The notes under the pieces: generated by a model
Databases searched by the model: none
What the model saw: only the letters and a program-made list of their open reading frames with translations
What the model was told of the DNA's origin: nothing
Translations under genes and position numbers: made by a program
In this document: piece after piece, positions 1,138 through 29,435 of the stretch
Position numbering within the stretch: the stretch's first letter is position 1
Layout of the letters: every line of letters begins with the position of its first letter
DNA from: Candidatus Brocadia sp.
Lineage (GTDB): Bacteria > Planctomycetota > Brocadiia > Brocadiales > Brocadiaceae
Direction: 5' to 3'
Assembly (NCBI GenBank): GCA_021650915.1
Contig: CP091279.1
Location: 600,001 to 632,000, forward strand
Length of the DNA: 32,000 nucleotides

Positions 1138-2178
1138 ATGAATAGAAAAAAGCTGCTCTCTCTTGCACTTGCCATTTTTATGACAGGTTGTAGCTCGTCT
1201 CAGTATTTAAAAAAGATGTCCCCTTTTAAAAAAGAAGAGGCAAGTCTTGAGCCCGGCAAGGGATCACAACCGGCTGATGCGCAAAAAAAAGACGATCTCT
1301 TTGTCTGTGCGGGGGATATTGATGTTACGTACAAAAAATTAGGTGAAGTCAGTCTCGGTGAGTACGGTTTTTCCGGGCATGATGTTTTGGCTATCAAAAT
1401 AAGGGAAAAGGCCCGCGCGGTGGGCGCTGAGGCGGTGGTTAACGTTCAATACGACACCGGTGCGTCAAAAACATGGCAAGGGTACGGTGAATTGGGCGGC
1501 ACGGATTATGGGGTAAGATATACATCGTGGTGTAAGGGGATGGCGATACAGTTTATGGAATCCCACAATTCCCTGGGGCTCTTGTCATCTAACCTTACGC
1601 CGGAGAATAAGGAATGGTTTGGTTTAAAAAAAGCACAGCAGGGCGTCATTGTTGTTCATGTTCAGCCTGGGAGTGTTGCATCTGCTGCAGGTATTAAACC
1701 GGAAGACCTCATTGTGGAATGGAACGGGGAAAAGATTGAAAACCGGAATCACCTGAAAAAGCTTATGGAAAGAACTGCCGGCAAAGAAGCCAGGTTAATC
1801 TTGTTGCGTGCAAAAGAAATCAAGACGGTAGCCTTGTCCGTACCGTTAATAACGCATCGTCCGGTTGCCTCGCCAGCGCCGCAGTTACCTGCAACAGAAA
1901 CAAGAACTGAGACCGTGGTAAGCGAAACATCTCATGATGCCCCTCATGATACCAAAAGTACAAATACGCCGGAGGTACATAATGAGATAGGGGATCTTTA
2001 TCTGCGCAAAGGCATGTATGACGACGCCATTGGGGAGTACCAAAAGGCTATTGCATCAGACCCAAATTCCGCCATTTCCTACTTCAATTTGAGTCTTGCC
2101 TACGATAAAAAAGGCTTGAAAAGAGAAGCTGAAGAGGCGTATGCTACGTATAAGAAATTAAAACCAAAGCGCAAATAA
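1138..2178 (+). CDS. Lipoprotein with PDZ domain and C-terminal TPR repeat
   Basis: Lipoprotein signal MNRKKLLSLALAIFMTGC (lipobox MTGC). PDZ-like block GVIVVHVQPGSVASAAGIKPEDLIVEWNGEKI. TPR-like block GDLYLRKGMYDDAIGEYQKAIASDPNSAISYFNLSLAY. Confidence 0.75.
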   Translation: MNRKKLLSLALAIFMTGCSSSQYLKKMSPFKKEEASLEPGKGSQPADAQKKDDLFVCAGDIDVTYKKLGEVSLGEYGFSGHDVLAIKIREKARAVGAEAVVNVQYDTGASKTWQGYGELGGTDYGVRYTSWCKGMAIQFMESHNSLGLLSSNLTPENKEWFGLKKAQQGVIVVHVQPGSVASAAGIKPEDLIVEWNGEKIENRNHLKKLMERTAGKEARLILLRAKEIKTVALSVPLITHRPVASPAPQLPATETRTETVVSETSHDAPHDTKSTNTPEVHNEIGDLYLRKGMYDDAIGEYQKAIASDPNSAISYFNLSLAYDKKGLKREAEEAYATYKKLKPKRK

Positions 2179-2182
2179 GGAA

Positions 2183-2201
2183 AGGCACGTGCCTGTTTTT
2201 T
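2183..2201 (+). terminator. Possible intrinsic terminator after the lipoprotein gene
   Basis: Palindrome aggcacgtgcct (2183-2194) followed by g and six T (2196-2201), 5 nt after the TAA at 2176-2178. The stem is short, so support is only moderate. Confidence 0.4.
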
Positions 2202-2262
2202 GTCCACGACTGCACATTCAAGAAATTGTTGCGTTTGTCAAAAAATATTCGGTGTACCTCTA

Positions 2263-2916
2263 ATGAAATATCTGATTTTTTTCTGTATCTTTATCGTGCC
2301 TATTCATTTGTTACCTGCCGCAGAATTACTAAAAAATGGTGATTTTGAAACGGCAGACACCACGGGCTGGAAGTATTGGGAAACCTATCCATGGGATGGT
2401 GACGGAGCTCCGGTAGAATTGCCTGCCCATCTGTCGATTGCTCTTCCTGGCAATATTGGAGTGCCCGTGCCACCTGCCACGAGCGGTTCTCTTGCCCTGA
2501 CGCAGCAAGTTGGTTTTGGCGGAACTGCGAGAGGAGGGCTTTATCAGGAAGTGAAGGTCATTGTAAATACCCCCTATGTGCTCACGGGTCATATGTCTTT
2601 CTATGGTGACGATATTGGGGATATATCAATTATTGGAATCCTGGACGGTTCCTGGAATCCAACACTTGCCTATACCAGTTTGAACAAATATTGTATCGGT
2701 GGTAATGTGGTTTCACCCTGGGTGGAATTATCCCTGATAGTCATCCCATCAAGAGATGTAATTACCGTCTTTACTGAGACCAGACAGGACTGGATGCATG
2801 GGAATGTTGCAGGATGGTATGATGATCTCAGCCTAAAACCAGTTCCTGAACCCGCAAAACTATTTATATCACACAATCCAAAAGCCAATTCGGTATATAA
2901 GGACAAGCAAGAATAA
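2263..2916 (+). CDS. Secreted protein with CBM4/9-like (galactose-binding-like) N-terminal block; function unknown
   Basis: The ORF track starts at TTG 2200, inside the upstream terminator. ATG 2263 gives signal peptide MKYLIFFCIFIVPIHLLPAAE followed by LLKNGDFETADTTGWKYWE. The C-terminus carries a VPEP motif. Confidence 0.6.
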   Translation: MKYLIFFCIFIVPIHLLPAAELLKNGDFETADTTGWKYWETYPWDGDGAPVELPAHLSIALPGNIGVPVPPATSGSLALTQQVGFGGTARGGLYQEVKVIVNTPYVLTGHMSFYGDDIGDISIIGILDGSWNPTLAYTSLNKYCIGGNVVSPWVELSLIVIPSRDVITVFTETRQDWMHGNVAGWYDDLSLKPVPEPAKLFISHNPKANSVYKDKQE

Positions 2917-3021
2917 TTCGTCCTTTGATAGTAACCCAGAGTTTACCGTCCTCATAAAACCTCTTCATTATATCTCTGGATAATCTTGCCTCTTGTATCA
3001 AGAATTTACAATCACCGTTTG

Positions 3022-3049
3022 TTGAAAAAGAAAAATTTTATGGTACAAT
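3022..3049 (+). promoter_or_regulatory. Sigma70-like promoter candidate (TTGAAA-N16-TGgTACAAT)
   Basis: -35 TTGAAA at 3022-3027 and -10 TACAAT at 3044-3049. The spacer is 16 nt, with an extended -10 TG at 3041-3042. Confidence 0.35.
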
Positions 3050-3072
3050 GATTTTATAGTGGCTTATCGTTT

Positions 3073-3122
3073 GTGTGTCATGGCACATGTGTGTGACGTC
3101 ACAGAAGTGTGCCATGACACAC
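3073..3122. promoter_or_regulatory. Perfect 15-bp inverted repeat with nested palindrome (operator cluster, or hairpin/terminator)
   Basis: GTGTGTCATGGCACA (3073-3087) is the exact reverse complement of TGTGCCATGACACAC (3108-3122). The loop contains the perfect 12-bp palindrome TGTGACGTCACA (3092-3103). A T-rich tract ttttaccgttttt follows at 3123-3135. Confidence 0.5.
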
Positions 3123-3434
3123 TTTTACCGTTTTTATGAAACCTATTTATTCGATTTTTAAATCTTTTGGTTATCTCTGTAGCAGAGGAAGTCTTTATAA
3201 AATTATAGGTTACAACAAGTCTGATAATAAATATGATTGAAGGGGGGTAATAGGGTATTTATCTTGCTGTTAACATATAGTTAATGAGAAGTAGAGTGAA
3301 TACTTCCTGATCATTTTGTGGCCAATGACAGTCATTGAACAGCAAATAATTCCACGACCTTGGTTTGACAATGCAAATATTCAGAGTGAGCTGATTTTAT
3401 AATAAAGCTGCTATCACATGGGAGGTGATGATTC

Positions 3435-4859
3435 ATGAATGAGAAACCAAGACCCTTTGTTCGAATGATAATTGCATGTCTATTCTTTTTCATTGCAGTT
3501 ACTCTGAACATTTTTTTGCCCCGTTATTGGCATACTATCCCAGAAATTGTGAAGCATCTTCTGCTTGTCTTCAGCGCCATAATGTGCGTACACATTATGG
3601 AGTATGCATATCTCTGGTGGGAAATTTTCGGGCATATCCGGAATATTTTAAAAGAAACTCTTCAGGCTACTCATCAACTTATTGATGACAACAGAAACGC
3701 CTTGGAAAAATCTTTACAGACAACCAACCGGCTCATTGGATCGGCGGCAATTATTGGTTTAAAAAATGTCTATTCTTCTCGTAAGGATGTAAAAGGTGAT
3801 ATCTACGATGCCATAGAAAATGCGGAAAAACGGGTATGGCTGCTTGGTATCACCGCCTCCGAAAATATCCTGCTTGACGAATTGCTCTCTACGCTGAACA
3901 ACAAACTGGCCGACGGACTCGATGTTAGGATACTCCTCCTCGATGCGCTTCGAAGTTCAGCGGTCTTTCGGACTTTGCTGGAAAGCACCGCACATGAGGC
4001 GGCAAAGATTGTCAACGCGGACAGGACAGATACCCATCTAACCGACGACCCATATTTCCATCAACGGCTCTACAGTGATTTTACTCATGTGTGTGACAGA
4101 CTTGGAAGCTATCCACGTATCAGCGCTACCGTTAGATTTTACACACAAACTCCCGCCTGCTGGATGATGATTGTAGACAACTCTGCCCATTTTCAACCCT
4201 ATACCTTCGGACGAAGCGCAAATAAGCATTCTGCGAATCTGTGCACGGGCGCTAATATGCCGGTATTCAAATTTCAGATGCAGGAAAACGGAAGGCCATT
4301 TGAGATACTCGAAGATAATTTCCAAAAGTTGTGGCTGACCTCAAATTTAGACTTGTTTCACATAGAAGCCAGGATAGCAAACCGCAATCGGATTATTTCT
4401 GATGTATTTCATGATAACAGTCAGTGGTTTAAGCATGTCTATGAAGCGCTTTATGTGCAGAAGGGCGCTATGCAGTTTACCGGTGACCGGCGTAAATTTC
4501 CCCGTCAATCCTGGGATGGTGTACAGTCCTTGCTAAAGGTCTGTTTGCCGAATTGTCAAACTCCCATAAAGGCTTCTCTTTGCGATTATTCCCGTGAAGG
4601 AGCCGCGATAAAATTAGATGCCCTCAATCACCCGCTGAAGATGGGAGATATTGTTACCTTGCAAAATACATTGCCATCTGAACCGCGACCAGAGAATTTC
4701 ATTATTGCTCATTTTCTGAAAAGGAATCAATTCATCATCAGGCGGATAATAAATGATTCTCAGCCGGTAATTGGATTACAAATAGTTTCGGAAGGCGAGA
4801 GACGTGATGAACAAGATCACTTTAACGGAATAACGACAGCGTCTCATTCATTATCATAA
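3435..4859 (+). CDS. Membrane protein with C-terminal PilZ (c-di-GMP-binding) domain; central domain unassigned
   Basis: Strong SD GGGAGGTGA 7 nt upstream of the ATG. Two N-terminal hydrophobic helices. PilZ motifs RRKFPR (RxxxR) and DYSREG (DxSxxG) lie ~25 aa apart, from nt ~4482. Confidence 0.75.
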   Translation: MNEKPRPFVRMIIACLFFFIAVTLNIFLPRYWHTIPEIVKHLLLVFSAIMCVHIMEYAYLWWEIFGHIRNILKETLQATHQLIDDNRNALEKSLQTTNRLIGSAAIIGLKNVYSSRKDVKGDIYDAIENAEKRVWLLGITASENILLDELLSTLNNKLADGLDVRILLLDALRSSAVFRTLLESTAHEAAKIVNADRTDTHLTDDPYFHQRLYSDFTHVCDRLGSYPRISATVRFYTQTPACWMMIVDNSAHFQPYTFGRSANKHSANLCTGANMPVFKFQMQENGRPFEILEDNFQKLWLTSNLDLFHIEARIANRNRIISDVFHDNSQWFKHVYEALYVQKGAMQFTGDRRKFPRQSWDGVQSLLKVCLPNCQTPIKASLCDYSREGAAIKLDALNHPLKMGDIVTLQNTLPSEPRPENFIIAHFLKRNQFIIRRIINDSQPVIGLQIVSEGERRDEQDHFNGITTASHSLS

Positions 4860-4869
4860 GAAACTTCTT

Positions 4870-6912
4870 ATGGAAAACATACAGATAAATATTAACCATA
4901 TCTGGGTTATGACAGCCGCATGCATGGTGTTTTTCATGCAACTCGGCTTTACTTCTTACGAGGCAGGATTTGCACAATCCAAAAATGCCATTAGCGTTTC
5001 TATCAAAAACCTCATGGTCACCCTGGTCGCCTCTCTTACGTTTTATATTTGTGGATTTGGATTGATGTTTGGCAACAGCTATACCGGCTGGGTTGGCGCC
5101 GACCATTTCTTTGCCCTGGGGGTAATGTCACATCAGGACAATTTAGGCTATAGTTTTTTCTTTTTTCAATTGGTCTTTGCCGCCACGGCTGCTACCATCA
5201 TGACCGGAGCTATCTCTGAACGGTCAAATTTTTTTTCCAATGTCGTCGGAGTTGTATTTGTAACTGGTATTATTTATCCGGTTTTTGGACATTGGGCATG
5301 GGGACATCTCTTTTGTCCGGAACAGTTAGGCTGGTTAAGAGGATTGGGGTTCATTGATTTTGCTGGTTCTACTGTGGTGCATTCGGTTGGCGGCTGGTTT
5401 GCCATGGCAGGGGCAATTACCGTAGGGCCAAGGATTGGTAAATACAACCCGGATGGGTCTTCAAATCAGATGGGCCTTCATAACATTCCATTGGTTACGA
5501 TAGGCACCTTTTTCCTTTGGTTTGGTTGGTTTGGATTTAACGGTGGGAGCCTTCTTCGGGCGAGTGGGGATATTGGTCTCGTCATTACCAACACGAACAT
5601 GGCGCCAGCAGCAGCGGGAGTTTCGGCAATGATATTTAATTATATAAAAGAAAAGAAACTCGATGCCGGCAAGCTCTTCACGGCTATATTAGCAGGTTTA
5701 GTCGCTGTTACCGCAGGTTCAAATATGATACAACCCGATGGCGCCGTTTGTATCGGTGTTATTGCTGGTATCGTATCGATTCTCGCGCAGGATTTCATTG
5801 AAAAGGTGATGAAGATTGACGATCCCGTTGCTGCTATTGCCGTTCACGGGGTAGGTGGTGTTATTGGTACACTTTGTGTTGCTCCTTTTGCTGATAAATC
5901 CTATCTTCTGGTAGAAAATGGTAACCGTTTGCACCAGCTTGGTGTTCAGGCTATTGGAGTCGGCGTGGCCTTTGCATGGTCATTTGGTCTGGGAATGCTC
6001 TTTTTCTGGTGCTTAAAGAAGGTGATTGGCATTCGGGTGAGCCAGGAAGAAGAACGGCGGGGACTGAACATTGCCGAATATGAAGATGTAGTTTCATGGC
6101 TCGATTTTATGCGTATTACCAGACTTCAGGACATGAACGTCGTACTGGAGAAAAGGGTTGCCGAACGAACAGAAGATCTGCAGAAGGCGAATGTTGCCCT
6201 TGAAAAGGCCAACAAACTCAAATCAGAATTTCTGGCAACCATGTCACATGAACTGCGCACCCCGTTGAATGCCATTATTGGCTTCGCAGAGGTTTTACGC
6301 GACGAAGTGAGCGGTTCTCTGAACGCAGACCAAAAAGACTTTGTCAGTGATATTCATAGTAGTGGACAACACCTTCTGAACATGATTAACGGTATCCTTG
6401 ACCTTTCCAAGATCGAGGCTGGAAAATTAGAGCTTCAGTATGAGGTCTTTTCCGTAGAAGAGACTATTCATGAGGTGTTGGATGCCATCGCCGGGTCTTT
6501 CCATAAGAAAGGCATCCGCGTACGTACGTGTATCCATGAGGATATACCGCCGATAACGGCTGATAAGGCAAAAATTAAGCAGGTTCTGTATAACTTGTTA
6601 TCGAATGCCTTCAAGTTTACGCCTGATAATGGCAGGGTTTCCATTAATGCAAAACTTATAAATCAACATATTCAGATCGCGGTGAGCGATACCGGCATTG
6701 GCATTCGGCAGGAAGATATGGATAAATTATTTAAGGTGTTTCATCAGGTGGATAGTTCGTTTTCACGGCGGTACGAAGGAACCGGTCTTGGTCTGATCCT
6801 TGCAAAGCGCCTGGTTGAATTACACGGTGGCAAGATAGGGGTAAAAAGTTTGTTTGGAAAGGGAAGCACCTTTATCGTTACGCTACCAGTAAAAAGTTGT
6901 GCGTCGGTGTAG
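4870..6912 (+). CDS. Ammonium transporter (Amt) domain fused to histidine kinase (HisKA + HATPase_c); ammonium sensor kinase
   Basis: The N-terminal ~400 aa are Amt-like: AGFAQSKNAISVSIKNLM, DFAGSTVVHSVGGW, AIAVHGVGGVIGTL (twin His). A coiled-coil linker follows, then the H-box FLATMSHELRTPLNAIIGF and the N/G boxes LLSNAFKFTP, DTGIGI, GTGLGLILAKRLVELHGG. The start lies 10 nt after the PilZ gene stop. Confidence 0.95.
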   Translation: MENIQININHIWVMTAACMVFFMQLGFTSYEAGFAQSKNAISVSIKNLMVTLVASLTFYICGFGLMFGNSYTGWVGADHFFALGVMSHQDNLGYSFFFFQLVFAATAATIMTGAISERSNFFSNVVGVVFVTGIIYPVFGHWAWGHLFCPEQLGWLRGLGFIDFAGSTVVHSVGGWFAMAGAITVGPRIGKYNPDGSSNQMGLHNIPLVTIGTFFLWFGWFGFNGGSLLRASGDIGLVITNTNMAPAAAGVSAMIFNYIKEKKLDAGKLFTAILAGLVAVTAGSNMIQPDGAVCIGVIAGIVSILAQDFIEKVMKIDDPVAAIAVHGVGGVIGTLCVAPFADKSYLLVENGNRLHQLGVQAIGVGVAFAWSFGLGMLFFWCLKKVIGIRVSQEEERRGLNIAEYEDVVSWLDFMRITRLQDMNVVLEKRVAERTEDLQKANVALEKANKLKSEFLATMSHELRTPLNAIIGFAEVLRDEVSGSLNADQKDFVSDIHSSGQHLLNMINGILDLSKIEAGKLELQYEVFSVEETIHEVLDAIAGSFHKKGIRVRTCIHEDIPPITADKAKIKQVLYNLLSNAFKFTPDNGRVSINAKLINQHIQIAVSDTGIGIRQEDMDKLFKVFHQVDSSFSRRYEGTGLGLILAKRLVELHGGKIGVKSLFGKGSTFIVTLPVKSCASV

Positions 6913-9551: not shown

Positions 9552-10544
9552 TTATGCGCAAAGTCTGTATACCAGCAATTCCAGTAATAATTGTGTATTC
9601 ATAGAACTTGTCTTGGTTTTCACATCGGTTTCTAATAAAAGTTCATGGTTTTTTGCAAGATCTTCTACGCTGTACCGTTTCACCTGTTCAAAAAATCGCT
9701 TTGCAAAGAATGGTATGATCTGTAACTCGGAGGCGACCTTTTGCTCGTTCTCGCCTTGTTGTAACAGTTGTTTTGCCCGCCACAATCTTTTAATCTGCCA
9801 TGCCAGCAAACTGATGATCCTCGCCGAATCTTCGCCGTGTGATAACATCTGAATTAAAACTTTCAGAGCCAGCGTTACGTTTCTTTGTGCAACGGCCTCG
9901 GTTAGTTCAAATACCGTGCGATCTCTATCCACGCCCACGAGGGCATCCACATCTCTTTCATCAATGGTGGTTTTCTCACCCAGATAAATCGATAATTTTT
10001 CAAGATGTTTGTCCAAAATCGCCAGATTACCACCGACACTATCAACGAGTTTTTGGGTAGCAGGGGCATTAATCTCTTTTTTGTACTGCCGTGCATGAGC
10101 CTGCACCCAGTTCGGCAGAGAGTGTTCCTTTAACTTTTTACACTCAAGAGAAATACCCACTTTGTCTACAAGGGTTGCCAACTTTGTCCGTTTATCCCAC
10201 TTCTTGCAGATGAGTACCAGATGGGAACGGCTTGCGGGCGTCTGTAAATACTTTTCAAGTATACTCCGGTTTTTATCAATAAATTCGTCTGCTTCTTCAA
10301 CAAGAACCAGCTTGTTTACCCCCGGAAAGAATGGCACCGTCCTTAATTCATCAAACACCACACCGCCGGAAATTTCATCCCCGTTGAATTCAATCAAAGC
10401 TATACTGGGGTCGTTGTCCTTGAGTAGATTCGTCTTTGTCGCCGAAAGCGCCTCGTGAATAAAAAACGCCTCATCTCCAAAAAATACAAAGATGGGAAAG
10501 GTTTTGCCTTTGTTCATCAAGGTCTTTAACTGATAAATATCCAT
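9552..10544 (-). CDS. holA: DNA polymerase III subunit delta
   Basis: 330 aa with the N-terminal pattern PIFVFFGDEAFFIHEA and a helical C-terminal domain typical of HolA. The ATG shares one nt with the cobU stop (TAATG at 10542-10546). Confidence 0.8.
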   Translation of the reverse strand: MDIYQLKTLMNKGKTFPIFVFFGDEAFFIHEALSATKTNLLKDNDPSIALIEFNGDEISGGVVFDELRTVPFFPGVNKLVLVEEADEFIDKNRSILEKYLQTPASRSHLVLICKKWDKRTKLATLVDKVGISLECKKLKEHSLPNWVQAHARQYKKEINAPATQKLVDSVGGNLAILDKHLEKLSIYLGEKTTIDERDVDALVGVDRDRTVFELTEAVAQRNVTLALKVLIQMLSHGEDSARIISLLAWQIKRLWRAKQLLQQGENEQKVASELQIIPFFAKRFFEQVKRYSVEDLAKNHELLLETDVKTKTSSMNTQLLLELLVYRLCA

Positions 10545-11206
10545 TATTTTATCCTCTGGGCAATTCCAGCCACCATAAAATAGACCTCATCCGCTTCACC
10601 GGCAATGATTTGGTTTGCATACCCTGCAATATCCCGGAATTCACGTGATAAGGCATTGTCAGGCACAATACTCAATCCAACCTCATTCGATATCAGAATT
10701 ACATCCGACCCAGACTCACGGCACGCTCGCCTCAGTTTGTGAATCTCTGCAAGGATCACCTGTTGTCTTTCCTGTGGACTTCCTGTCTGAAGCCCGGAAC
10801 AACCAGCCGAGTTTGTCATTTGATTTGATTCTCCTCCCCTGCCGGGAGAGGGTAAATCATACCCTTTTGCAGGAGGTTGAGCGAACGGCTGTCCGCCCCT
10901 ACCACCTGGAACTGTTTCACTGTTTAAAAGCATATTCGTAATATAGAGGGTAATACAATCAATCAAGACAAGGCCTGTCGTACCGCTAATATCCGATACA
11001 ACTTTGTTAACGTGAAAAGGAGACTCAATTGTCATCCAGTTCTGCGGACGCCGTGCACGGTGGATACGAATCCGTTCATGCATCTCGTCGTCTTTAGCCT
11101 CTGCGGTAGCAATATAGACTACATCATTATACTTTTTGGTAAGTCCTTCTGCAAAGGCAGACTTGCCGCTCCGTGCGCCTCCAAGGATAAAGGTTATTTT
11201 GGCCAT
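10544..11206 (-). CDS. cobU: Adenosylcobinamide kinase / adenosylcobinamide-phosphate guanylyltransferase, with an internal low-complexity insertion
   Basis: P-loop ILGGARSGKSAFAE, YIATAEAKDDEMHERIRIHRARRP, LISNEVGLSIVPDNALSREFRDIAG. At 220 aa it exceeds the ~180 aa I recall for canonical CobU. Confidence 0.9.
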   Translation of the reverse strand: MAKITFILGGARSGKSAFAEGLTKKYNDVVYIATAEAKDDEMHERIRIHRARRPQNWMTIESPFHVNKVVSDISGTTGLVLIDCITLYITNMLLNSETVPGGRGGQPFAQPPAKGYDLPSPGRGGESNQMTNSAGCSGLQTGSPQERQQVILAEIHKLRRACRESGSDVILISNEVGLSIVPDNALSREFRDIAGYANQIIAGEADEVYFMVAGIAQRIK

Positions 11207-11290: not shown

Positions 11291-14095
11291 TTATCTGTAA
11301 ATGTGCATAATGCCAACGCATGTCGTTCTGACATTTAAAATTCCTTCACACTCCGATCGGAGCTGTGCCTCGAAGTTGCGGATGAGTAATGAAATTTGTT
11401 CATCCGTTTCTTTTAGGTTTGAGACAGCATGATTTTCTTTCCATTCCTGCTGCATGAGAAGTTCAACATCGCTTTTCATCTGGCTACCCGATAAAATGAA
11501 TTCTTTATATAATTCTTTTTTTATTCCATCTTCAAAGTTGACCATAAAAAGATATCTGACTGAAAAAAAGTCTGGTATTCCATCATTTTTTAATTTGAGG
11601 ACATCTCCAGAAATGGCATCGCTCCTATAATGACTTATTAATGCATCTACTAAAGGATGGCCAACTCCCATAAGATCCATCCCCTTTTTCCTGGTGGCTA
11701 TTTGCCTTGAGAAGGTTACGTTTTCATAGTGTGACGATATGCCGGCGTATTTTTTGAGCGCAGACGGGACTACAATGTTTACAATTTCTCCCGAAGGGAC
11801 GAAACTTCCCCCGAGACGTATAATAGCTTTTTCACAAAATATTTTCAGGTCTTCGAGGGTATATCTTCCTTTAAGCTCAATATAGCTTTCAAGATTAAAG
11901 GTTTTTAAATCCTGTGCTAATTGTCGCAAGGCGTTGCTCGACTCTTTGGCTTGTCTCAGCGCTTCGGCTATTTCTTCTTCTGTCCTTTTGTAATTCTTAT
12001 TGATCAGGGCTTCTTTATACAAATCATTATAGTTTAAAGAGGAGCCGAGAAAGCCCAGAATTTCTGATCTAAAATCCTCCGTTACTTCCCCCGTGACGTT
12101 ATCAATCCTCCCTATCGTTTTTGCTATTTCAAAGAGTTTTTGTTCGAGAATGGAATAAACATCCTCTTCTATCGTTCCTTCGGCAATAAGATTATATACC
12201 TGCGCGGTATCCGTCTGCCCATACCGGTGTATCCTTCCTATCCTCTGTTCAACTGCCATAGGATTCCATGGCAGGTCATAGTTGAAGAGAATCCTGCATA
12301 TCTGTAAGTTTATGCCTTCTCCGCCGGCAGAGGTGCTTATGAGAAATTGAGCCCCGTTTTCGTTCCAGAATGATTCGCACGACGCTATCTTATCCTCAAG
12401 AGGGCCGCCCTTAATTATGGCAATTTTATCATTTGAATAATACTTGCTCAGTTCTTCCTTCAAAAAATAAAGAGTCTCAAGATACTGCGTAAAGATAACA
12501 ATTTTTTCCTTTTCATTCTCCCTTCTGATTTGCTCAATTGCCCTCACCAGCGTGTCAAACTTTCTGTCAGGACCATCGTCCACAAGGCCTATCAACTCTT
12601 TCACCTTTTGGTCTTCATTAGGGATGTTTGCGGGCGCATCAATGATGTCATCGCTGATTTCCTGTGCATCAAGCGCCCAATGGGTTATCTCCTCATCAAA
12701 TTTCGGCCGTTTTTTAAGTTGTTGCTTCAATCGGGCAATATATGCATCCGCATCCGTGTAATCAATAGCCCCCCTCTCATAGGATAAAAGTTCAAAGACG
12801 ATCTTACGCATTTCCTCCTGATATTTTACTATCTGTTTAGAAATATCCTCTCTGGCAGTAAGATTATGCAAGCCACCCTCCATCGCCATTTGTCTCCTCG
12901 CATAAATGGCTAATAATCTTCGCCTTAATGCCTGCTTGATAGCCCTGGGGCTTGACGACATAATTTTCTGAAAGATTGCCATGACAAAACCCACAGCCCT
13001 CTGCTGTTTTGTCGTCTTGTCACTTCCCACACCGGCGGCATTATATCCTTCTTTCAGATATTCTGTTAGCTTCTCATAAAAACGTTGCTCTCTGATCGAA
13101 AGGCTGAATTTTTGAGAATGCACCTTACGTCTCATAAATATCGGATTTCCTTCAACGTCGGTCACTTCCCGTTTTGTCCTCCTTATCATAACCCGTCCAA
13201 GGAGTCCTCTGTGGTCTAGCATTGCTTCGGGGTTTTCAAATAACTGGTCATCAAGCAGTTGTATTAAAGACCAGAATTGATAACCATCCCCCTGATGTGG
13301 AGTAGCTGAGAGAAAGAGCATATCACGGGTTATTCCTTTCAGCTTTTCTGCCAAACGGTAATTTTGTGTGACTTCGATTTTTTCCCCATATTTTTTTCTG
13401 GTGAGATGGTGCGCCTCATCAAAGACGATAATATCCCATTCCGGGCCTTTCATGAGCTTTTCAAGCCGCGCTGGTTTCTTGATCGTGTCAATTGAGGCTA
13501 TCACAAGATTATGCCTTTCCCATGCATGGGGGTTTGCATCTGAGAAATCCAGTCCAAATATGTCAAAATAGATTCTAAAGCAATCCTTCAGCTCGTTACG
13601 CCAATTTACGGTAAGCCCCGCCGGACAGACGATAAGCGCCCTGTCCGCATCCCTTCTCGAAAGGAGTTCTCTTATGATCATACCGGTTTCAATCGTCTTC
13701 CCAAGTCCAACTTCATCCGCAATGAGGAGCCTTCTCCGCCTTGTCTCAACGACCTGGTGGGTCAGCAATATTTGATGCGGAAGCAGGTCTGCCTTGCTGT
13801 TTGACAATTCACCGCCAGAGTTTTCCACGGGGAATTGATACGCAAGTTGTTTTAAGAAAAAATCCACAGGCTTATCAGAAATACCCTTTTCAAATTTCTG
13901 AAAAATATCATCAATTGGCTCAACCATTTCCGGGGGAAATGTCTCAAGAATCCTTTTCCCGTCTTGCTCAAAGGCGACGTCAACCGTGTATTCACCGCCA
14001 CCCTCGCACACCCGGATTACTTCGCCCGCTCCTAATTCGGGACGATATTTCACTTTTACCCTGGTATTCTCTTTTATGATCATACTATTTGTCAT
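11291..14095 (-). CDS. SNF2-family helicase (COG0553-like; BrxHII-like or RapA-like)
   Basis: 934 aa. Motif I LIADEVGLGKTIETG, motif II VFDEAHHL, SATPHQG, and the helicase C block NYDLPWNPMAVEQRIGRIHRYGQ. The ATG overlaps the upstream gene stop (ATGA at 14092-14095). Confidence 0.9.
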   Translation of the reverse strand: MTNSMIIKENTRVKVKYRPELGAGEVIRVCEGGGEYTVDVAFEQDGKRILETFPPEMVEPIDDIFQKFEKGISDKPVDFFLKQLAYQFPVENSGGELSNSKADLLPHQILLTHQVVETRRRRLLIADEVGLGKTIETGMIIRELLSRRDADRALIVCPAGLTVNWRNELKDCFRIYFDIFGLDFSDANPHAWERHNLVIASIDTIKKPARLEKLMKGPEWDIIVFDEAHHLTRKKYGEKIEVTQNYRLAEKLKGITRDMLFLSATPHQGDGYQFWSLIQLLDDQLFENPEAMLDHRGLLGRVMIRRTKREVTDVEGNPIFMRRKVHSQKFSLSIREQRFYEKLTEYLKEGYNAAGVGSDKTTKQQRAVGFVMAIFQKIMSSSPRAIKQALRRRLLAIYARRQMAMEGGLHNLTAREDISKQIVKYQEEMRKIVFELLSYERGAIDYTDADAYIARLKQQLKKRPKFDEEITHWALDAQEISDDIIDAPANIPNEDQKVKELIGLVDDGPDRKFDTLVRAIEQIRRENEKEKIVIFTQYLETLYFLKEELSKYYSNDKIAIIKGGPLEDKIASCESFWNENGAQFLISTSAGGEGINLQICRILFNYDLPWNPMAVEQRIGRIHRYGQTDTAQVYNLIAEGTIEEDVYSILEQKLFEIAKTIGRIDNVTGEVTEDFRSEILGFLGSSLNYNDLYKEALINKNYKRTEEEIAEALRQAKESSNALRQLAQDLKTFNLESYIELKGRYTLEDLKIFCEKAIIRLGGSFVPSGEIVNIVVPSALKKYAGISSHYENVTFSRQIATRKKGMDLMGVGHPLVDALISHYRSDAISGDVLKLKNDGIPDFFSVRYLFMVNFEDGIKKELYKEFILSGSQMKSDVELLMQQEWKENHAVSNLKETDEQISLLIRNFEAQLRSECEGILNVRTTCVGIMHIYR

Positions 14096-14520
14096 GAGGA
14101 TAGGTTGTACCCCGTTTTGTATATGGTTATTCCACGTACATTATAAGCTGTAGTAGAACCAAAGATAAGTTCTATGGGAAGGTTTTCCCCGCGGTATTCA
14201 ACCCAGAGGGAGTCCCCTCTGATAATCCGACCTTTGCACACGATCTGAACCTGTATCAGTTTTCGCACGAAGAGAGACGCCGATGACTGTAAAATCCTGT
14301 GAATTTCTCGTGCAAGAGATTGCCTCTCCTGAGATGCCGTCATGTAAAGCGCTTCTTCGACACCGACAATAAAAAATGACGAACGAGGAGATATGCCATC
14401 AGGGCAATTCCTTATTTCTCTCAGAAAATCTAAAATACCTATCTTTATTTCATTCGGTTCGACACCATCCTCTTTGTAAGGTTTTACGTATCTATACTCT
14501 ACTATTTCGTAACCTGGCAT
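14092..14520 (-). CDS. Hypothetical protein, translationally coupled to the SNF2 helicase
   Basis: The ORF track gives TTG at 14544. ATG at 14520 is preceded by AAGGTG 7 nt upstream, giving 142 aa. I recognise no motif. There is a 4-nt overlap with the helicase start. Confidence 0.6.
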   Translation of the reverse strand: MPGYEIVEYRYVKPYKEDGVEPNEIKIGILDFLREIRNCPDGISPRSSFFIVGVEEALYMTASQERQSLAREIHRILQSSASLFVRKLIQVQIVCKGRIIRGDSLWVEYRGENLPIELIFGSTTAYNVRGITIYKTGYNLSS

Positions 14521-14600
14521 ATATTTGCACCTTACAGATTTCAAATAGACAACATCTTGGTTTTTTGAAAAATTCTTGTATTAACGTAGGTAACATGCAC

Positions 14601-14630
14601 CGTAGAGACAATTCATGAATTGCCTCTACG
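14601..14630. repeat. Short palindromic repeat element (cgtagagacaatt-catg-aattgcctctacg)
   Basis: 13-bp arms with one mismatch around a central catg. Confidence 0.5.
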
Positions 14631-14841
14631 CCCTGTTACAAGGCACTTTCAACTATTGATGTTTTCAAAAAAACCTTAATCCGGCGATAATTTTAAATCT
14701 TGACTTAAGAATTAACACAAAAGATTCGCATCTACCGGGCAAACGAGCTATAAACGCAAATTGACATATTTCACTTTTTACGTGAAAACTACTATTTCAA
14801 AAATACTAGATACTGTCAACTGAATGGCTCATAATAGTATC

Positions 14842-14925
14842 TGTCATTGCGAGGGTGTTTTTTCCCGAAGCAAGCCTTTTTGAGGTGTCCTGGAGATTGC
14901 TTCGGAAAAAACCCTCGCAATGACA
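14842..14925. repeat. REP/MITE-like inverted pair of a ~30-nt module (tgtcattgcgaggg...ccgaagcaa)
   Basis: 14842-14875 and the reverse complement of 14895-14925 match at about 29 of 31 positions with two single-nt indels. They can fold into a long hairpin. Confidence 0.7.
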
Positions 14926-14994
14926 CGTTTTACCTTTTTGGACATACCATAGCGCAGCACAGCCGCAACCAAATTTCCTTTATGAAAGTGGGGA

Positions 14995-15086
14995 GATTGC
15001 TTCGGAAAAGGCCCTCGCAATGACAGTGACCATGCACTTTGATGGCACACACTGCACGTTGTCATTGCGAGTGAAGCGAAGCAATC
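14995..15086. repeat. Second inverted pair of the same ~30-nt module
   Basis: gattgcttcggaaaaggccctcgcaatgaca (14995-15025) pairs with tgtcattgcgagtgaagcgaagcaatc (15060-15086). Both are copies of the module at 14842-14925. Confidence 0.65.
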
Positions 15087-15261
15087 TTTCACTCATAAAA
15101 AACGGTACCTCCTGAAAGGGGCTTATGAAAAAACTTACAAAAAAAAGAAGTTTTTATACAGTAATACTATATCATCCCTTCGGGATTTTTTCACATTTCC
15201 AAAAAAGAGTTTAACCACGAAACACGAAGGTCACGAAGAAAAACTCATCCTAATACTATAA

Positions 15262-18200
15262 TTACACCTCAATCAGGCTTACTATTTTCTGTATGGGTAT
15301 CTGAAACGTAGGATTCCTCTTTTTTAAATATTCCAGGGCAACACGCATCTGTGGGATTGCCTGTTTGAATTCATTCAACCATAACATCAGATTCTCTGAG
15401 GCATTGGCAAGCCCCATAAGATAATGAATGATATCCACCAGCGCTACATTATCAAATCTTTCCTCTTCCATATCGGGAAATAGTTTTAGCTGACGAGGAT
15501 TCCTTGCGTCTTTTTTAAAAAGCGCCTGGAGGTCTTTATACCGTTCGTCAGGCTGTTTTACCTCGTAAGTCCTCCCCCGTTTTGCCCTGCCTTTGCGCAT
15601 AACACCGGCCTTTATCAATCCGTCAATTTCAAGAATACCGCGGGTTGCCTTATGCACCTCGTCGCTCTGTATCTCTTTTCTATCACAAAGACAGGTGAGA
15701 TACACATAGCTTACCGTGTCTATATGCTCAAGTTCTGAGGATAAAGGATGCGCGGTATCGATGAGTTGCTCCACCATCATCCGTATAGAGGCGAGTGCCT
15801 TTTGAAGAGGCACGACATCTCCATTGTGGTCAACTATGGCGCCATAGTGCTTGCTGTATAACTCAAGGCATTTGCCGATGAGGATAATGTTTATATCTGC
15901 GGGTAAGAGCTTTTCGCTTCCATATCTTCCCGACTCTATCATGGCAATCTCTTCCCTTGCCTTTGCACGTATCTCTTGCCTGACGCCTGCCCATGAACGT
16001 TTCTTTGTGTTGCCATTACCATTTCGCTTTTTACAGACATGGATGAGATCGTAGGAGATTGCCTGTTTATCCATGAGATGCAAGGAGCTTTCAGACTCAC
16101 CATGTATGGGGTAGACCGCCTCTATCAAGAAACCCGCATTGCAGACAGATTCAAGGAGCGATTCCCATGCACTCCCTTCTGCATGATGAAAGGTAAAAAC
16201 CACAAGTCCTTGATCTTCGAGGTATTCATGACATTTCTTCCACACATTAGTAAGTCCTTCTTCATAATCTTTTGCAGTTTTACCACGTGTGGGATTTTCA
16301 ACAATTTCCTCCACCTTTGGTGTTAATTCGGGTGAAAAGTGAGGATATGTTTTTGAGAGCAATAGTCTAAGCCAGACATAAAAGAAATCAGCAAGTTCAG
16401 AATAGTTGACATTATCAGCGTATGGCGGATCAGTAATTACAATGTTAAACTTCCCTTCTATTGTGTTACGTGAATTTCCGCAAAATATTTTTGAATCATT
16501 GTTTGCCTCTATAATTTCATTTCTATTCTCACTTATAATTTTGTTCTCGGAATATTTACGGTCGTAAGGTTTATAACAAAATACTTTTCCTTCAATAGCT
16601 TTATTTATGCACTTCAAAAAATTACATTTTCCATAGCTAACGCCCCAAACATTACCCTCTGCAAAAGTAGCTTTCGGTTGAAAGTCATGCCGTGCAAAAA
16701 CTCCTTCAGTTTTATCTGCATCAGATCTATGTCTTGTAAATACGTTGTTACTTTCCAGTGTTGTAAAAAACCCGCTTATCAACATCTCTTTCATTACCTG
16801 ATCCTCTTCCTCACCAATCGCCTTCAGCAATGTGCTCAGGCAGAGGAGTTGTCTCGGATTAAACATCTGATGCCAGTATCTATAATGATGTTCAATAAGC
16901 CTGTGCGTTTCTTGCCCATCGGGAATTGCACTCTTTGGATAAGGAAGCTTTTCTTTTTCCTTTTCCCACCGCTTTTCTACATCCTGATAGCGCTTCAGGT
17001 CTGAGGGATTTATTCTTTTAAAGAACTTCCCGTTGTTTTTGTTTATCATACATGAATGGGTCAGTCTTTTGCTCTTTGTGACCTCATGAAAGAGGTTCTT
17101 TTCAAGCGTTTCACCCGCACACTCAGGACAATAACCCTCTATGGCATACGGCCTGGTTGGCAGCAGTTGCTCCTGTGGCAACTTTCGTATGGAATTGATA
17201 ATCTTGTCCTTTGTGCCGCATGATTCGCAAACAAAAGAGCCCTTTTCGGCAACATTTCCCCTGTTCGGGCTGTAATCTTTTTTACAGGCAGGGCACGAGA
17301 CATCTTCAGGCAAAGCGCCACGATACTGCCAGACGGCATAGCAATGAGGACAGAGTAGGACGGCAAGGGGAACTTTTTTCTTTGTCTTTTTCAGCGATTT
17401 GGCTTCTGCCTCCACATTTTCATGGGAACACCAGGGGCATGCAGCCCTGTGTGTCATGCTATTCCACAACGCCCATCGCTTATGGGACCGCAATTCTCCC
17501 GCTGCATCCTTCGGATTACACACGGTAAGCGCCTTTTCTGCTATCAGGGAAGCAGATTCTATATCCATATCAAACACCTTTTTACAATGCTTGCATTCAT
17601 AATCGGGCACGTACCTGATGGTTGGTGTTTTTTGAGCAATAATATAATTGTTAAAAAGAGTCACTTCCCGTTTACAATTGGGGTTTGTGCAGATGGCGGA
17701 TTTTACCCAAAAGGTGTAGATAATGTCGGCGTCTTCCTTAGCGCTTCTATTATTGGAAGACAACCCCCCTGATCCTCCTTTGTCAAGGGAGACATCGCTG
17801 CTTGCCCCACAGCAGGGACACCCGGTTTTATAGTGGCTGAGGAGTTCTTCTTTTACCGATTTTCCCGTATGGGTCTTGCGCGCCTCAAGTCTTTTGAATG
17901 CATCTCTGAGCCTGTCGATATCAACCGGTTCTACCTCAGTCTTTACGATAAACCAGGCAACGGGATTTAAATCGATACCCGTCACATGACAGCCGAGGCG
18001 CAACGCCTCGACAACGGTTGTGCCACCCCCCATAAATGGATCAAGTATCTTTACGCCGTTTGTATCGGGGTCATTGGTATGATCATTGTAAAACTCCTCC
18101 ATGATGTTTGTGCCGGCAGGCTTCATGGAGGCCAGGAGTATCGCCCTGAATACGCAGGATGCCCTGCGGGCAAACCATTTATGCATTTGATAGATGGGTT

Positions 18201-18276
18201 TGAAGGCATTGCGTTCCGGTACAGCCAGTCTGTTGATTTCGACGATGGGAAATGATTCTTCGATTGCCTTTTTCAT
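15262..18276 (-). CDS. DUF1156-type DNA methyltransferase with multiple Zn-ribbons (PglXI-like, inferred N6-adenine/N4-cytosine class)
   Basis: 1004 aa. The N-terminus PIYQMHKWFARRASCVFRAILLA resembles the DUF1156 signature. SAM motif ILDPFMGGGTT at aa 78-87 and catalytic ITDPPYA at aa 614-620 (nt ~16420-16431). Eight CxxC-type pairs lie between aa ~150 and 390. Confidence 0.85.
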   Translation of the reverse strand: MKKAIEESFPIVEINRLAVPERNAFKPIYQMHKWFARRASCVFRAILLASMKPAGTNIMEEFYNDHTNDPDTNGVKILDPFMGGGTTVVEALRLGCHVTGIDLNPVAWFIVKTEVEPVDIDRLRDAFKRLEARKTHTGKSVKEELLSHYKTGCPCCGASSDVSLDKGGSGGLSSNNRSAKEDADIIYTFWVKSAICTNPNCKREVTLFNNYIIAQKTPTIRYVPDYECKHCKKVFDMDIESASLIAEKALTVCNPKDAAGELRSHKRWALWNSMTHRAACPWCSHENVEAEAKSLKKTKKKVPLAVLLCPHCYAVWQYRGALPEDVSCPACKKDYSPNRGNVAEKGSFVCESCGTKDKIINSIRKLPQEQLLPTRPYAIEGYCPECAGETLEKNLFHEVTKSKRLTHSCMINKNNGKFFKRINPSDLKRYQDVEKRWEKEKEKLPYPKSAIPDGQETHRLIEHHYRYWHQMFNPRQLLCLSTLLKAIGEEEDQVMKEMLISGFFTTLESNNVFTRHRSDADKTEGVFARHDFQPKATFAEGNVWGVSYGKCNFLKCINKAIEGKVFCYKPYDRKYSENKIISENRNEIIEANNDSKIFCGNSRNTIEGKFNIVITDPPYADNVNYSELADFFYVWLRLLLSKTYPHFSPELTPKVEEIVENPTRGKTAKDYEEGLTNVWKKCHEYLEDQGLVVFTFHHAEGSAWESLLESVCNAGFLIEAVYPIHGESESSLHLMDKQAISYDLIHVCKKRNGNGNTKKRSWAGVRQEIRAKAREEIAMIESGRYGSEKLLPADINIILIGKCLELYSKHYGAIVDHNGDVVPLQKALASIRMMVEQLIDTAHPLSSELEHIDTVSYVYLTCLCDRKEIQSDEVHKATRGILEIDGLIKAGVMRKGRAKRGRTYEVKQPDERYKDLQALFKKDARNPRQLKLFPDMEEERFDNVALVDIIHYLMGLANASENLMLWLNEFKQAIPQMRVALEYLKKRNPTFQIPIQKIVSLIEV

Positions 18277-18279
18277 TTT

Positions 18280-18615
18280 CTAGTCGATTGCAAGATGAAT
18301 CTTTATGGCGTTTTCCACTTGTTCAAGGATATCGTTGCCAAGTGTGCCAATATACCTTTTGAGGCGGCTTTTATCTACAGCCCTCATTTGAGGTATCTTT
18401 AATTTAGAGTCATAATCAAGCCTGCTGTCATTTTTCTTTACAAATACCTCAAACGGGAACACCCTTTCAACCTTTGATGAAAAAGGGATTGCCATAACAG
18501 TTTTCAGATGCTTATTAGCTTCATTGCATGATATGATCAAAGCAGGTCTTTGCTTTTTTATCTCAGCGCCAACAGATGGTTCAAAATCTACAAGATATAT
18601 ATCACCACGCTTCAT
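18280..18615 (-). CDS. mazF: Type II toxin, MazF/PemK family endoribonuclease
   Basis: 111 aa beginning MKRGDIYLVDFEPSVGAEIKKQRPALIIS, typical of PemK/MazF. The start overlaps the antitoxin stop by 4 nt, and the stop lies 3 nt before the methyltransferase ATG. Confidence 0.9.
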   Translation of the reverse strand: MKRGDIYLVDFEPSVGAEIKKQRPALIISCNEANKHLKTVMAIPFSSKVERVFPFEVFVKKNDSRLDYDSKLKIPQMRAVDKSRLKRYIGTLGNDILEQVENAIKIHLAID

Positions 18616-18842
18616 TCTTCGAGTCCATCACTGAGAGTGTCTTCCCATTCCTTGTATACTTCATAGTCTTCATTCACTGCCGCTTTATATGCTGCCTCCA
18701 ATTTATTTCTGAGTCTTTTCTTTTCGTCATGCAGTTTCTTTTCCTTAATCGCTTCGGCTATATAGGCAGATTTATTCTTAACTGTTGATAATATCTGCGC
18801 AACATCTTCAGGTAATAATATATTGATTCTTGTATTACTCAT
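18612..18842 (-). CDS. Antitoxin (RHH/MazE-like) partner of MazF
   Basis: Position upstream of mazF. ATG at 18842 has SD GGAGGTG and lies 1 nt after the PglZ stop (TGAtATG). MSNTRINILLPEDVAQIL fits a ribbon-helix-helix beta strand, and the tail is acidic. Confidence 0.7.
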   Translation of the reverse strand: MSNTRINILLPEDVAQILSTVKNKSAYIAEAIKEKKLHDEKKRLRNKLEAAYKAAVNEDYEVYKEWEDTLSDGLEE

Positions 18843-18843
18843 A

Positions 18844-28694: not shown

Positions 28695-29435
28695 ATGAGA
28701 AAGAGATTTGAGCAGCAATTGAAGCTTGGCATCATACCCATTTCAGGGGTAAAACTGCCAATAAAGAGTCGAGATGAGCTACCACCGATACTGAGGGCGT
28801 TGCAACATATCTATGTTACACCGGAGTTGAACGAGGAGGTATTCCGGATATTAGAGGCGAAGGTAACGAAGGGGAAGAAAAAGACGGGAAGATATGGGAT
28901 GGATTTATGGCATATTTTGGTGTTGTCGGTGGTAAGATTAGGGTTAGATGCCGATTATGACAGGTTGGAGGATTTTGCCAACCATCACAAACTTATCAGG
29001 CAGATAATGGGGGTTGAGACGGCATTTGGAGAGGCGAAGGTTTTTTCGATGCAGAGCATCAAGGACAATATAAGATTGTTGGATGAGGAGACCCTCAGGC
29101 AGATAAATGAAGTGGTGATATCATCGGGGCATCAGTTGGTTAAAAAAAAGGACGAAGGACTGTGTATTAAGGTGGATACGTATGTGTTAGAGACGAATGT
29201 ACACTTTCCGGCCGATATGAATTTATTGTGGGATGCGGGACGCAAGAGTCTGGACATGATAGAGGATGCAATAGAGGAAGGCATCCTGGCGGGGAAAGGA
29301 TGGCGCAAGAGCAAATATTGGAGGAGAGAGTTAAAAAAGCTGATGAGGATAAGCGCAAAGGCGTCAAGCAGCGGGGGGGAAAAACAAGGAAGAGCATGTG
29401 AGGAGTTACTTGGAATTATCGAGGGGTTTGAGTGA
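28695..29435 (+). CDS. DDE transposase, N-terminal part (orfA; frameshifted relative to orfB)
   Basis: MRKRFEQQLKLGIIPI...KSRDELPPILRALQHIYVTPE resembles N-termini of the IS4/IS5/ISNCY-type transposases I recall. It ends shortly after a G7A4 run (29373-29384). Confidence 0.75.
   Translation: MRKRFEQQLKLGIIPISGVKLPIKSRDELPPILRALQHIYVTPELNEEVFRILEAKVTKGKKKTGRYGMDLWHILVLSVVRLGLDADYDRLEDFANHHKLIRQIMGVETAFGEAKVFSMQSIKDNIRLLDEETLRQINEVVISSGHQLVKKKDEGLCIKVDTYVLETNVHFPADMNLLWDAGRKSLDMIEDAIEEGILAGKGWRKSKYWRRELKKLMRISAKASSSGGEKQGRACEELLGIIEGFE

Follow-up and report, generated by a model that had tools for sequence, protein, structure and literature searches.

Ks-Amt5 of Candidatus Kuenenia stuttgartiensis is the founding Amt-based ammonium receptor, and a 2026 paper still described its cognate response regulator as unidentified (PMC12918730). 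The window examined here, by which we mean the whole stretch of 32,000 nucleotides that was analyzed (contig CP091279.1 of Candidatus Brocadia sp., positions 600,001 to 632,000 of the forward strand), encodes an Amt-histidine kinase fusion (Amt-HK) of the Ks-Amt5 type and, immediately upstream on the same strand, a membrane protein of 474 residues, ORF1. What is such a protein doing beside an ammonium sensor? The first-pass annotation of this locus had offered two answers, a link between ammonium sensing and signaling by cyclic di-GMP (c-di-GMP), or a non-canonical output partner for the kinase. We find that ORF1 is probably a c-di-GMP receptor, judging by its sequence, and our preferred reading, which we hold tentatively, is that it would be a co-expressed, c-di-GMP-responsive accessory that regulates the Ks-Amt5-type sensor rather than a phospho-acceptor for it. 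What we observed directly are the domain architecture, the conservation of motifs, the gene arrangement and its phylogenetic spread. The features of ORF1 to which we refer below, numbered from the first letter of the window, are as follows.

3435..4859, + strand: ORF1, 474 residues, a membrane protein with two transmembrane (TM) helices, a stalk, a phospholipase D (PLD)-like domain lacking catalytic residues (pseudo-PLD) and a PilZ domain
3465..3527, + strand: TM helix 1, approximately residues 11-31, from the AlphaFold2 (AF2) model and hydropathy
3546..3614, + strand: TM helix 2, approximately residues 38-60, from the AF2 model and hydropathy
3615..3752, + strand: cytoplasmic stalk helix, residues 61-106, continuous with TM helix 2 in the model
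3753..4457, + strand: PLD-fold domain without catalytic residues, residues 107-341, from AF2 and Foldseek
4155..4211, + strand: degenerate HKD region, residues 241-259, mapped by motif spacing and a beta-hairpin
4485..4784, + strand: PilZ beta-barrel, residues 351-450, with RRxxxR at 4488-4505 and DxSxxG at 4584-4601

The C-terminal part of ORF1 is a PilZ domain. Its match to the Pfam PilZ profile (PF07238) only just exceeds the gathering threshold (23.6 vs. 22.5 bits; residues 351-413) and spans only profile positions 1-56 of 102, and the same profile is matched at E ≤ 0.01 by 20 of the 82 relatives of ORF1 that we aligned. The RxxxR motif that precedes the barrel (R352-R353-K-F-P-R357) is retained in nearly all relatives (R353 and R357 each in 78/82), as is the D/NxSxxG motif (D384-Y-S386-R-E-G389), with Asp or Asn at position 384 in 80, Ser386 in 75 and Gly389 in 65 of the 82. 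The strands predicted by AF2 between residues 366 and 450 form a beta-barrel, the six-stranded PilZ fold, and a Foldseek search with this barrel retrieved the c-di-GMP-bound PilZ domains of MotI, BcsA, PlzD, Alg44, PA0012, and YcgR (PDB matches include 5vx6, 4hg6, 1yln/2rde, 4rt0, 8u0i, 5y6g, and 4i86). We consider the PilZ assignment, which had been made from the C-terminal signature alone in the first-pass annotation, to be sound despite the marginal Pfam score because of these fold matches and the conservation of both motifs. ORF1 shares with YcgR, MotI/DgrA, PlzD/VCA0042, Alg44, and the PilZ domain of BcsA the beta-barrel, both c-di-GMP motifs, and a flexible linker before RxxxR. It differs from these canonical receptors in its partner domain, which is PilZN/YcgR_N, a glycosyltransferase or an HlyD-like domain in them and a pseudo-PLD in ORF1.

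At the other end of the protein, hydrophobic segments are centered at approximately residues 14-22 and 43-52 on the Kyte-Doolittle scale, and nowhere else in ORF1 is there a further 19-residue window with a mean above 1.2. The AF2 model, which was built on the alignment of 82 relatives and has a mean predicted local distance difference test score (pLDDT) of 85.8, places TM helix 1 at residues 7-31 and TM helix 2 within a 70-residue helix (residues 37-106) that is followed by an alpha/beta domain (residues 109-341), a low-confidence linker and the beta-barrel (residues 358-450). Hydropathy and model agree on the two N-terminal TM helices noted previously. The N-terminus carries three Lys or Arg residues and is thereby predicted to lie on the cytoplasmic side, and the long stalk suggests, in the model, that ORF1 may form a dimer. 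TM helix 2 contains two histidines that are widely conserved (His41, 3555-3557, in 75/82 relatives, and His53, 3591-3593, in 76/82); histidines are unusual in a plain membrane anchor, and these could bind a metal or haem, or make a polar contact with a partner within the membrane.

Between anchor and barrel lies a region of some 250 residues that had been left unassigned and that can now be assigned as a PLD fold without the HKD residues. A model of the central domain by itself (pLDDT 91.7, predicted template modeling score 0.89) gave 76 Foldseek matches in the PDB at E ≤ 0.001, and all of the 50 listed belong to the PLD superfamily. The top matches are non-catalytic, namely the DUF1669 domains of human FAM83B and FAM83A and archaeal TrmBL2 (5qhm, E 3.3e-6; 5lzk, 4urj, and 5box), with vaccinia F13, PssA, PLD1/2, Streptomyces PLD, and NucT ranking lower; the likeness to FAM83 and TrmBL2 is at the level of the fold only, with 9-14% identity and TM-scores of 0.4-0.58. 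ORF1 has one PLD-like domain per chain, with the PLD alpha/beta fold, and it lacks the HxKxxxxD motif of PLD enzymes: when this motif is mapped to residues 241-248 by motif spacing and by the beta-hairpin and secondary structure, rather than by superposition, the His position (241) is His in none of the 82 relatives, the Lys position (243) is Trp in all 82, and Asp248 is kept in 80. Searches of the PDB with the ORF1 sequence gave no match at E ≤ 10, and the family profile retrieved no PLD, its sole match being a spurious designed protein, so that the kinship to PLD rests on the fold together with a faint match to the NCBIfam cardiolipin synthase model (E 0.023) and matches of Pfam PLDc_2 to 2 of the 82 family members. 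Judging from the model, the central domain would be a PLD-fold pseudoenzyme, with a role in binding or scaffolding instead of catalysis. There are precedents for such a role, as the pseudo-PLD DUF1669 of FAM83 proteins anchors CK1 kinases (PMC6008594). Like the center of ORF1, DUF1669 and the C-terminal domain of TrmBL2 are PLD folds that serve in binding and not in catalysis; FAM83 is restricted to vertebrates and TrmBL2 is archaeal, and the resemblance is thus an analogy of use and not a matter of family membership.

Only 268 of 1.84 billion representative clusters matched the central domain at E ≤ 0.001 when they were searched exhaustively, which makes this a rare protein family, one defined by a PLD pseudoenzyme as the partner domain of PilZ. 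No description of the combination of pseudo-PLD and PilZ surfaced in our literature searches on anammox PilZ proteins and PilZ kinase adaptors, which were not aimed at that combination, and one database record names a relative as "cardiolipin/phosphatidylserine synthase family protein."

The domains of the neighboring kinase are arranged as follows.

4870..6912, + strand: Amt-HK, 680 residues, Ks-Amt5 orthologue
4903..6090, + strand: Amt domain, residues 12-407, Pfam Ammonium_transp, with N1/N2 residues Q24, E31, K46, T51, and N124
6220..6423, + strand: HisKA (DHp), residues 451-518, H-box SHELRTPLN
6562..6894, + strand: HATPase_c (CA), residues 565-675, from Pfam

The best PDB match of Amt-HK is Ks-Amt5 itself (6eu6; E 3e-196; ~72% identity in the Amt domain), the two proteins are 69% identical overall with the same Amt-HisKA-HATPase_c architecture, and the ammonium-sensing residues Q24, E31, T51, and N124 are identical (the roles of the residues of the sensing site are given in PMC11152129). 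Compared with Ks-Amt5 (kuste3690/KSMBR1_3866) the window protein has Lys in place of Arg46, which parallels the switching Lys of Sd-Amt1, and the upstream ORF1 homolog is split by an insertion sequence (IS) or deleted in the studied K. stuttgartiensis strains. The second-best PDB relatives of the Amt domain are 8qj3/8qpf, which we take to be Sd-Amt1. Amt-HK is 87% identical to its counterpart in Brocadia sp. WS118, and the U32 peptidase encoded further upstream in the window shares 90% identity with the B. pituitae enzyme. By architecture, PDB match and sensing residues, Amt-HK is thus an ordinary member of the Ks-Amt5 group and a true orthologue; the first-pass annotation had likened its architecture to that of Ks-Amt5.

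Are the two genes expressed together? Both open reading frames were confirmed, as was the distance of 10 nt between the stop codon of ORF1 and the start of Amt-HK, and the following signals surround them.

3103..3126, + strand: terminator-like hairpin and T-run, 3' of the upstream gene, which ends at 2916
3420..3428, + strand: Shine-Dalgarno (SD)-like sequence GGGAGGTGA, 6 nt 5' of the ORF1 ATG, read from the sequence
4860..4869, + strand: intergenic spacer GAAACTTCTT, 10 nt, with no SD-like sequence and compatible with translational coupling

The strong SD of ORF1, the lack of an SD belonging to Amt-HK in the 10-nt gap, the absence of a terminator-like site at the junction in our terminator pattern scan, and the hairpin upstream all fit a two-gene operon, and ORF1 and Amt-HK most likely form a two-gene unit with one transcript and coupled translation, as predicted from these signals. 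The hairpin, which is likely the 5' limit of the unit, is part of a longer imperfect palindrome (3073-3126; TGTGTCATGGCACA ... TGTGCCATGACACA) with a T-run in the 519-nt gap 5' of ORF1; we scored it as the terminator of the upstream gene, and it could alternatively be an operator. Two weak terminator-like patterns fall within coding sequence (3626-3643 and 5091-5104), and the total of such patterns is at chance level (4 observed vs. 3.8 in shuffled sequence). A scan for sigma-70 promoters gave no excess of sites (14 vs. 10.8 in shuffled sequence), and a perfect TTGACA (3365-3370) and a perfect TATAAT (3398-3403) were discounted as a promoter on account of the 27-nt spacer between them.

If these predictions are correct, ORF1 would be a membrane-anchored c-di-GMP receptor facing the cytoplasm, whose PilZ barrel would bind c-di-GMP and whose PLD-fold domain, having lost the catalytic His and Lys, may act as a docking or scaffold module or as a ligand-binding module. 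It would be made together with the ammonium-sensor kinase and docked beside it in the membrane, and the kinase/phosphatase output of the sensor, or its localization, would respond to c-di-GMP in addition to external ammonium, with the signal leaving through a CheY/DivK-like receiver encoded elsewhere in the genome. In this scheme we infer c-di-GMP binding, co-transcription and, above all, contact between ORF1 and the kinase; our sample of species is dominated by one family, and what we say about function is drawn from sequences, structure predictions and the gene neighborhood.

The components of this scheme have precedents, and the pair takes up two known themes, PilZ adaptors and Amt-based receptors. 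In Pseudomonas aeruginosa the kinase SagS works together with the PilZ adaptor HapZ, and c-di-GMP switches CckA (PMC12564702). These cases show that c-di-GMP can act on histidine-kinase signaling via a PilZ protein or by direct binding. HapZ is a soluble protein made of a single PilZ domain, and its target is the receiver domain in a hybrid kinase. In contrast, ORF1 has a membrane anchor and a pseudo-PLD, Amt-HK lacks a receiver domain, and the connection here is one of genomic linkage only. A general link from ammonium to c-di-GMP is already known from Sd-Amt1 of Shewanella denitrificans, an Amt-HAMP-GGDEF protein in which an ammonium receptor is linked to c-di-GMP synthesis (PMC11152129). 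In Sd-Amt1 ammonium controls the synthesis of c-di-GMP within one polypeptide, whereas in the window the putative reader of c-di-GMP is a separate, adjacent protein.

We surveyed the pairing in 24 loci from species representatives of anammox bacteria, two of which are uninformative (L016 ends at a contig edge, and L014 has an IS200-like transposase after ORF1 and then the end of the contig). The pair was retained in 16 of the 24, always on the same strand, with a gap of -19 to 84 nt and a full-length Amt-HK orthologue (69-87% identity). These 16 span Brocadia, Jettenia, two Kuenenia species and a groundwater lineage of Planctomycetota, with L047 in addition, and the conservation of the adjacency, which had been proposed as a check, therefore holds in these groups. 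In Jettenia the pair is intact though the upstream block has moved ~9 kb away. None of the window genes 3' of Amt-HK is syntenic in any of the loci examined, and in the Brocadia, Jettenia, and K. hertensis loci the gene that follows Amt-HK is on the opposite strand. ORF1 and Amt-HK both track the species tree within this small clade.

Scalindua provides a second kind of association. There the ORF1 homolog heads a same-strand cluster and is followed by a DUF2231 gene, a small open reading frame and a response regulator; in L019, L022, and L037/L038 an Amt domain fused to a HisKA_2/HWE kinase and a second regulator then follow. One example reads as follows.

L037/L038, 6001-13383, same strand: ORF1 homolog, DUF2231 protein, small open reading frame, receiver (REC) protein with a Cys-rich C-terminus, Amt-HisKA_2/HWE kinase, second REC protein, Tll0287-like protein, and HAMP-HisKA_2 kinase

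A sigma-54 activator, a REC protein, a PAS kinase and a hybrid-cluster protein are encoded upstream of this cluster. That a two-component association recurs in Scalindua in a differently built form is the strongest argument for a functional link over inherited gene order.

Several observations weigh against our preferred reading. Conservation of the pair lies to a considerable extent within Brocadiaceae, together with syntenic upstream genes, and shared ancestry explains part of it. Scalindua lacks direct adjacency, as does L012, and in Scalindua RBC_AMX3 a Ks-Amt5-type gene and an ORF1 homolog are on different contigs. In the groundwater lineage the ORF1 homolog (350-382 residues) has no PilZ domain and still abuts Amt-HK, implying that linkage to the kinase is a property of the TM and pseudo-PLD portion and not of PilZ, and that c-di-GMP input is inessential to the link. 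The proposed connection between ammonium sensing and c-di-GMP gains from the conserved adjacency and the conserved PilZ motifs, and is weakened by these PilZ-less pairs. The link is also not an obligatory one: besides the Scalindua cases, K. stuttgartiensis strains carry a split or deleted ORF1 homolog, and this disruption is tolerated. Outside anammox bacteria, the relatives that we examined have no Amt or kinase neighbor, and some are in mobile or defense-like contexts. Lastly, residue 295 of ORF1 (codon AAT, 4317-4319) is Asn where 81 of the 82 relatives have His, in an EDHFxKLW motif; as an independent assembly of 99% identity has the same Asn, we regard it as real, lineage-specific and no sequencing error, and it might mean that this copy of ORF1 is functionally altered or atypical.

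The disruption in K. stuttgartiensis deserves a closer description. In the complete genome of CSTR1 (CP049055.1) and in OCTL01000117, a 1.4-kb IS with 32-nt terminal inverted repeats, a 12-nt direct repeat and a DDE transposase splits the ORF1 homolog at approximately codon 410, leaving a 54-codon remnant immediately 5' of Ks-Amt5.

L043 (CP049055.1), 1212-4001: IS-split ORF1 homolog, terminal inverted repeats at 2441-2472 and 3815-3846

Three other K. stuttgartiensis assemblies (within the set L042 and L044-L047) have the remnant only, the 5' part of the ORF1 homolog having been lost, and in a metagenomic contig (L047 type) that encodes an identical Ks-Amt5 protein the homolog is uninterrupted. 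Ks-Amt5 was undetected in the CSTR1 proteome (PMC7709395), and its RNA was low and unresponsive in MBR1 (PMC7438415). Low expression of Ks-Amt5 would fit a polar effect exerted by the IS, which separates the 5' region of ORF1 from Ks-Amt5. The published Ks-Amt5 literature that we searched neither mentions the neighboring ORF1 gene nor cites the flanking locus tags. That the model strains carry a disrupted partner gene is a caveat for the published work and may bear on the low expression of Ks-Amt5.

The first alternative to a regulator of the kinase is that ORF1 shares a promoter with the sensor and acts in parallel to it, on a target of its own such as a lipid, an envelope or extracellular polymeric substance process or another protein, with no contact to the kinase. 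We think this possible, though somewhat doubtful. The operon signals would be identical to those expected from our preferred reading; the membrane anchor, the PLD fold and the conserved residues R116, R133, R179, R234, K279, and K298 would suit an anionic lipid head group; and the presence of the family in other phyla without an Amt-HK neighbor (non-anammox members occur in Acidobacteriota, Syntrophobacteraceae, Actinomycetota, and Eisenbacteria) implies a function independent of the kinase. Against it stand the Scalindua homolog, which is also in a two-component cluster and sometimes accompanies a different Amt-kinase, and the finding that in other phyla the cassette is fused to a cyclase, suggesting a role on signaling proteins.

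These fusions are found among long relatives from Pyrinomonadaceae (P0077, P0078, P0086, and P0089; L048 5001-6719), which are soluble and begin with a class III adenylate/guanylate cyclase that replaces both TM helices, the pseudo-PLD and intact PilZ motifs being retained. The idea that the cyclase replaces PilZ at the C-terminus was rejected, since the Pfam coordinates place the cyclase N-terminally with PilZ kept. The architecture is possibly that of a c-di-GMP-regulated cyclase. The invariant core of the family, as predicted, is stalk, pseudo-PLD and PilZ, and its fusion to a signaling enzyme suggests a regulatory cassette. It is feasible, albeit speculative, that this core serves as a transferable module for c-di-GMP input and clamps onto signaling enzymes, by docking in membrane-tethered form on the Ks-Amt5-type kinase in Brocadiaceae and by fusion to a cyclase in Pyrinomonadaceae. 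Were this so, ammonium signaling in Brocadiaceae would be gated by c-di-GMP, in a bacterial counterpart of kinase anchoring by FAM83; the cyclase fusions would allow cross-talk from c-di-GMP to cAMP or cGMP; and the published physiology of Ks-Amt5 would come from a background without its natural partner and possibly without its native promoter. Aggregation in anammox reactors is connected with c-di-GMP, and a link between ammonium sensing and the reading of c-di-GMP would thus be of possible applied interest.

Of two non-anammox relatives in mobile or defense-like settings (L049 1-6350 and L034 6001-10809), one is encoded directly 3' of TnsB/TniB/TniQ of a Tn7-like element, and the other adjoins SNase, GmrSD, an EcoRI-type methylase and a phage tail gene. 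A defense-system reading of ORF1 was rejected, as PADLOC was empty for ORF1 and the anammox genes are at a fixed syntenic position and lack catalytic residues.

A second alternative is that the gene order is inherited and has no functional meaning, the spot having simply escaped rearrangement in Brocadiaceae. It has points in its favor: four upstream genes (for the U32 peptidase, a PGPGW protein, a PDZ-TPR lipoprotein and a 238-residue protein) are equally syntenic in Brocadia, Kuenenia, and the groundwater lineage, neither Scalindua nor L012 nor any of the non-anammox relatives examined shows the adjacency, and the copy in K. stuttgartiensis is disrupted. We nevertheless consider it unlikely, given that the pair survives in Jettenia despite the displacement of the upstream block, that no window gene 3' of Amt-HK is syntenic, that the two genes are invariably co-oriented with a short gap and Amt-HK has no SD of its own, and that Scalindua has its second, differently arranged association of an Amt-kinase and a response regulator.

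The other proposal of the first-pass annotation was that ORF1 replaces the response regulator as a non-canonical phospho-acceptor or output partner, and it drew on the absence of a receiver gene from the window. That absence is real: Pfam scans of all plausible genes in the 32 kb found no receiver domain, and a local REC hidden Markov model gave no match at E ≤ 0.1 among all window open reading frames of at least 60 residues. Kinase and receiver are adjacent in the classical manner in L040, L051, and L052, and not in the window. The full-length Amt-HK orthologues of these three loci, from Ca. Anammoxibacter and two long metagenomic contigs, are the most divergent ones (58-61% identity). The gene order there is TsaE, Amt-HK, and a single-domain CheY/DivK-like receiver of 123-129 residues that begins 3-10 nt after Amt-HK, with no ORF1 homolog.

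L040, 9070-9447: receiver adjoining a divergent Amt-HK
L051, 7299-7670: receiver adjoining a divergent Amt-HK
L052, 6074-6463: receiver adjoining a divergent Amt-HK

Relatives of this receiver with 56-60% identity are encoded in K. stuttgartiensis (annotated as DivK), in other Kuenenia and in Brocadia (P0373, P0387, and P0470), orthology not being established by this since similarly close relatives occur in other phyla. The receiver of the window kinase is therefore most probably, from these comparisons, a conventional and unlinked CheY/DivK-like regulator. A receiver of 118-122 residues encoded 2.4-6.5 kb 3' of Amt-HK in Brocadia and Jettenia is unlikely to be the cognate one, as it follows its own kinase of ~523 residues; it has no similarity detectable by BLAST to the receiver of the divergent loci. 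Even with the empty window and the description of the Ks-Amt5 regulator as unidentified (PMC12918730) on its side, a phospho-acceptor role for ORF1 is very improbable, as ORF1 has neither a REC nor a histidine phosphotransfer domain, the kinase has canonical HisKA and HATPase_c domains, and divergent orthologues adjoin an ordinary receiver with close relatives in Kuenenia and Brocadia. The wiring downstream of Ks-Amt5 is made testable by these findings, with two concrete candidates, the co-oriented ORF1 (a probable c-di-GMP receptor) and the CheY/DivK-like receiver.

It is also highly improbable that ORF1 works as a catalytically active member of the PLD superfamily under the control of c-di-GMP, be it as a lipid synthase, a lipid hydrolase or a nuclease, for although the faint cardiolipin synthase and PLDc_2 matches, the fold matches to PssA, PLD1/2, and NucT and the mobile or defense-like contexts of some relatives speak for it, the HKD His and Lys are missing throughout the family, with an invariant Trp at the Lys position, each chain has just one PLD-like domain, the closest structural neighbors are non-catalytic, PADLOC was empty and the family profile finds no PLD in the PDB.

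Elsewhere in the window, an ~11-kb island on the minus strand (11291-22476) splits the cobalamin pair CobU (10544-11206) and CobS (22463-23278). It encodes an SNF2/ResIII helicase (934 residues), a 150-residue open reading frame, a DUF1156 N6/N4 DNA methylase (1004 residues), a MazF/PemK toxin (18280-18615) and two uncharacterized proteins (324 and 885 residues), and looks like a restriction or defense island. Further downstream, a DDE_Tnp_1 transposase open reading frame (29398-30159) overlaps one of 246 residues (28695-29435), and a low-GC stretch (GC 0.34-0.35) lies at 26-28 kb.

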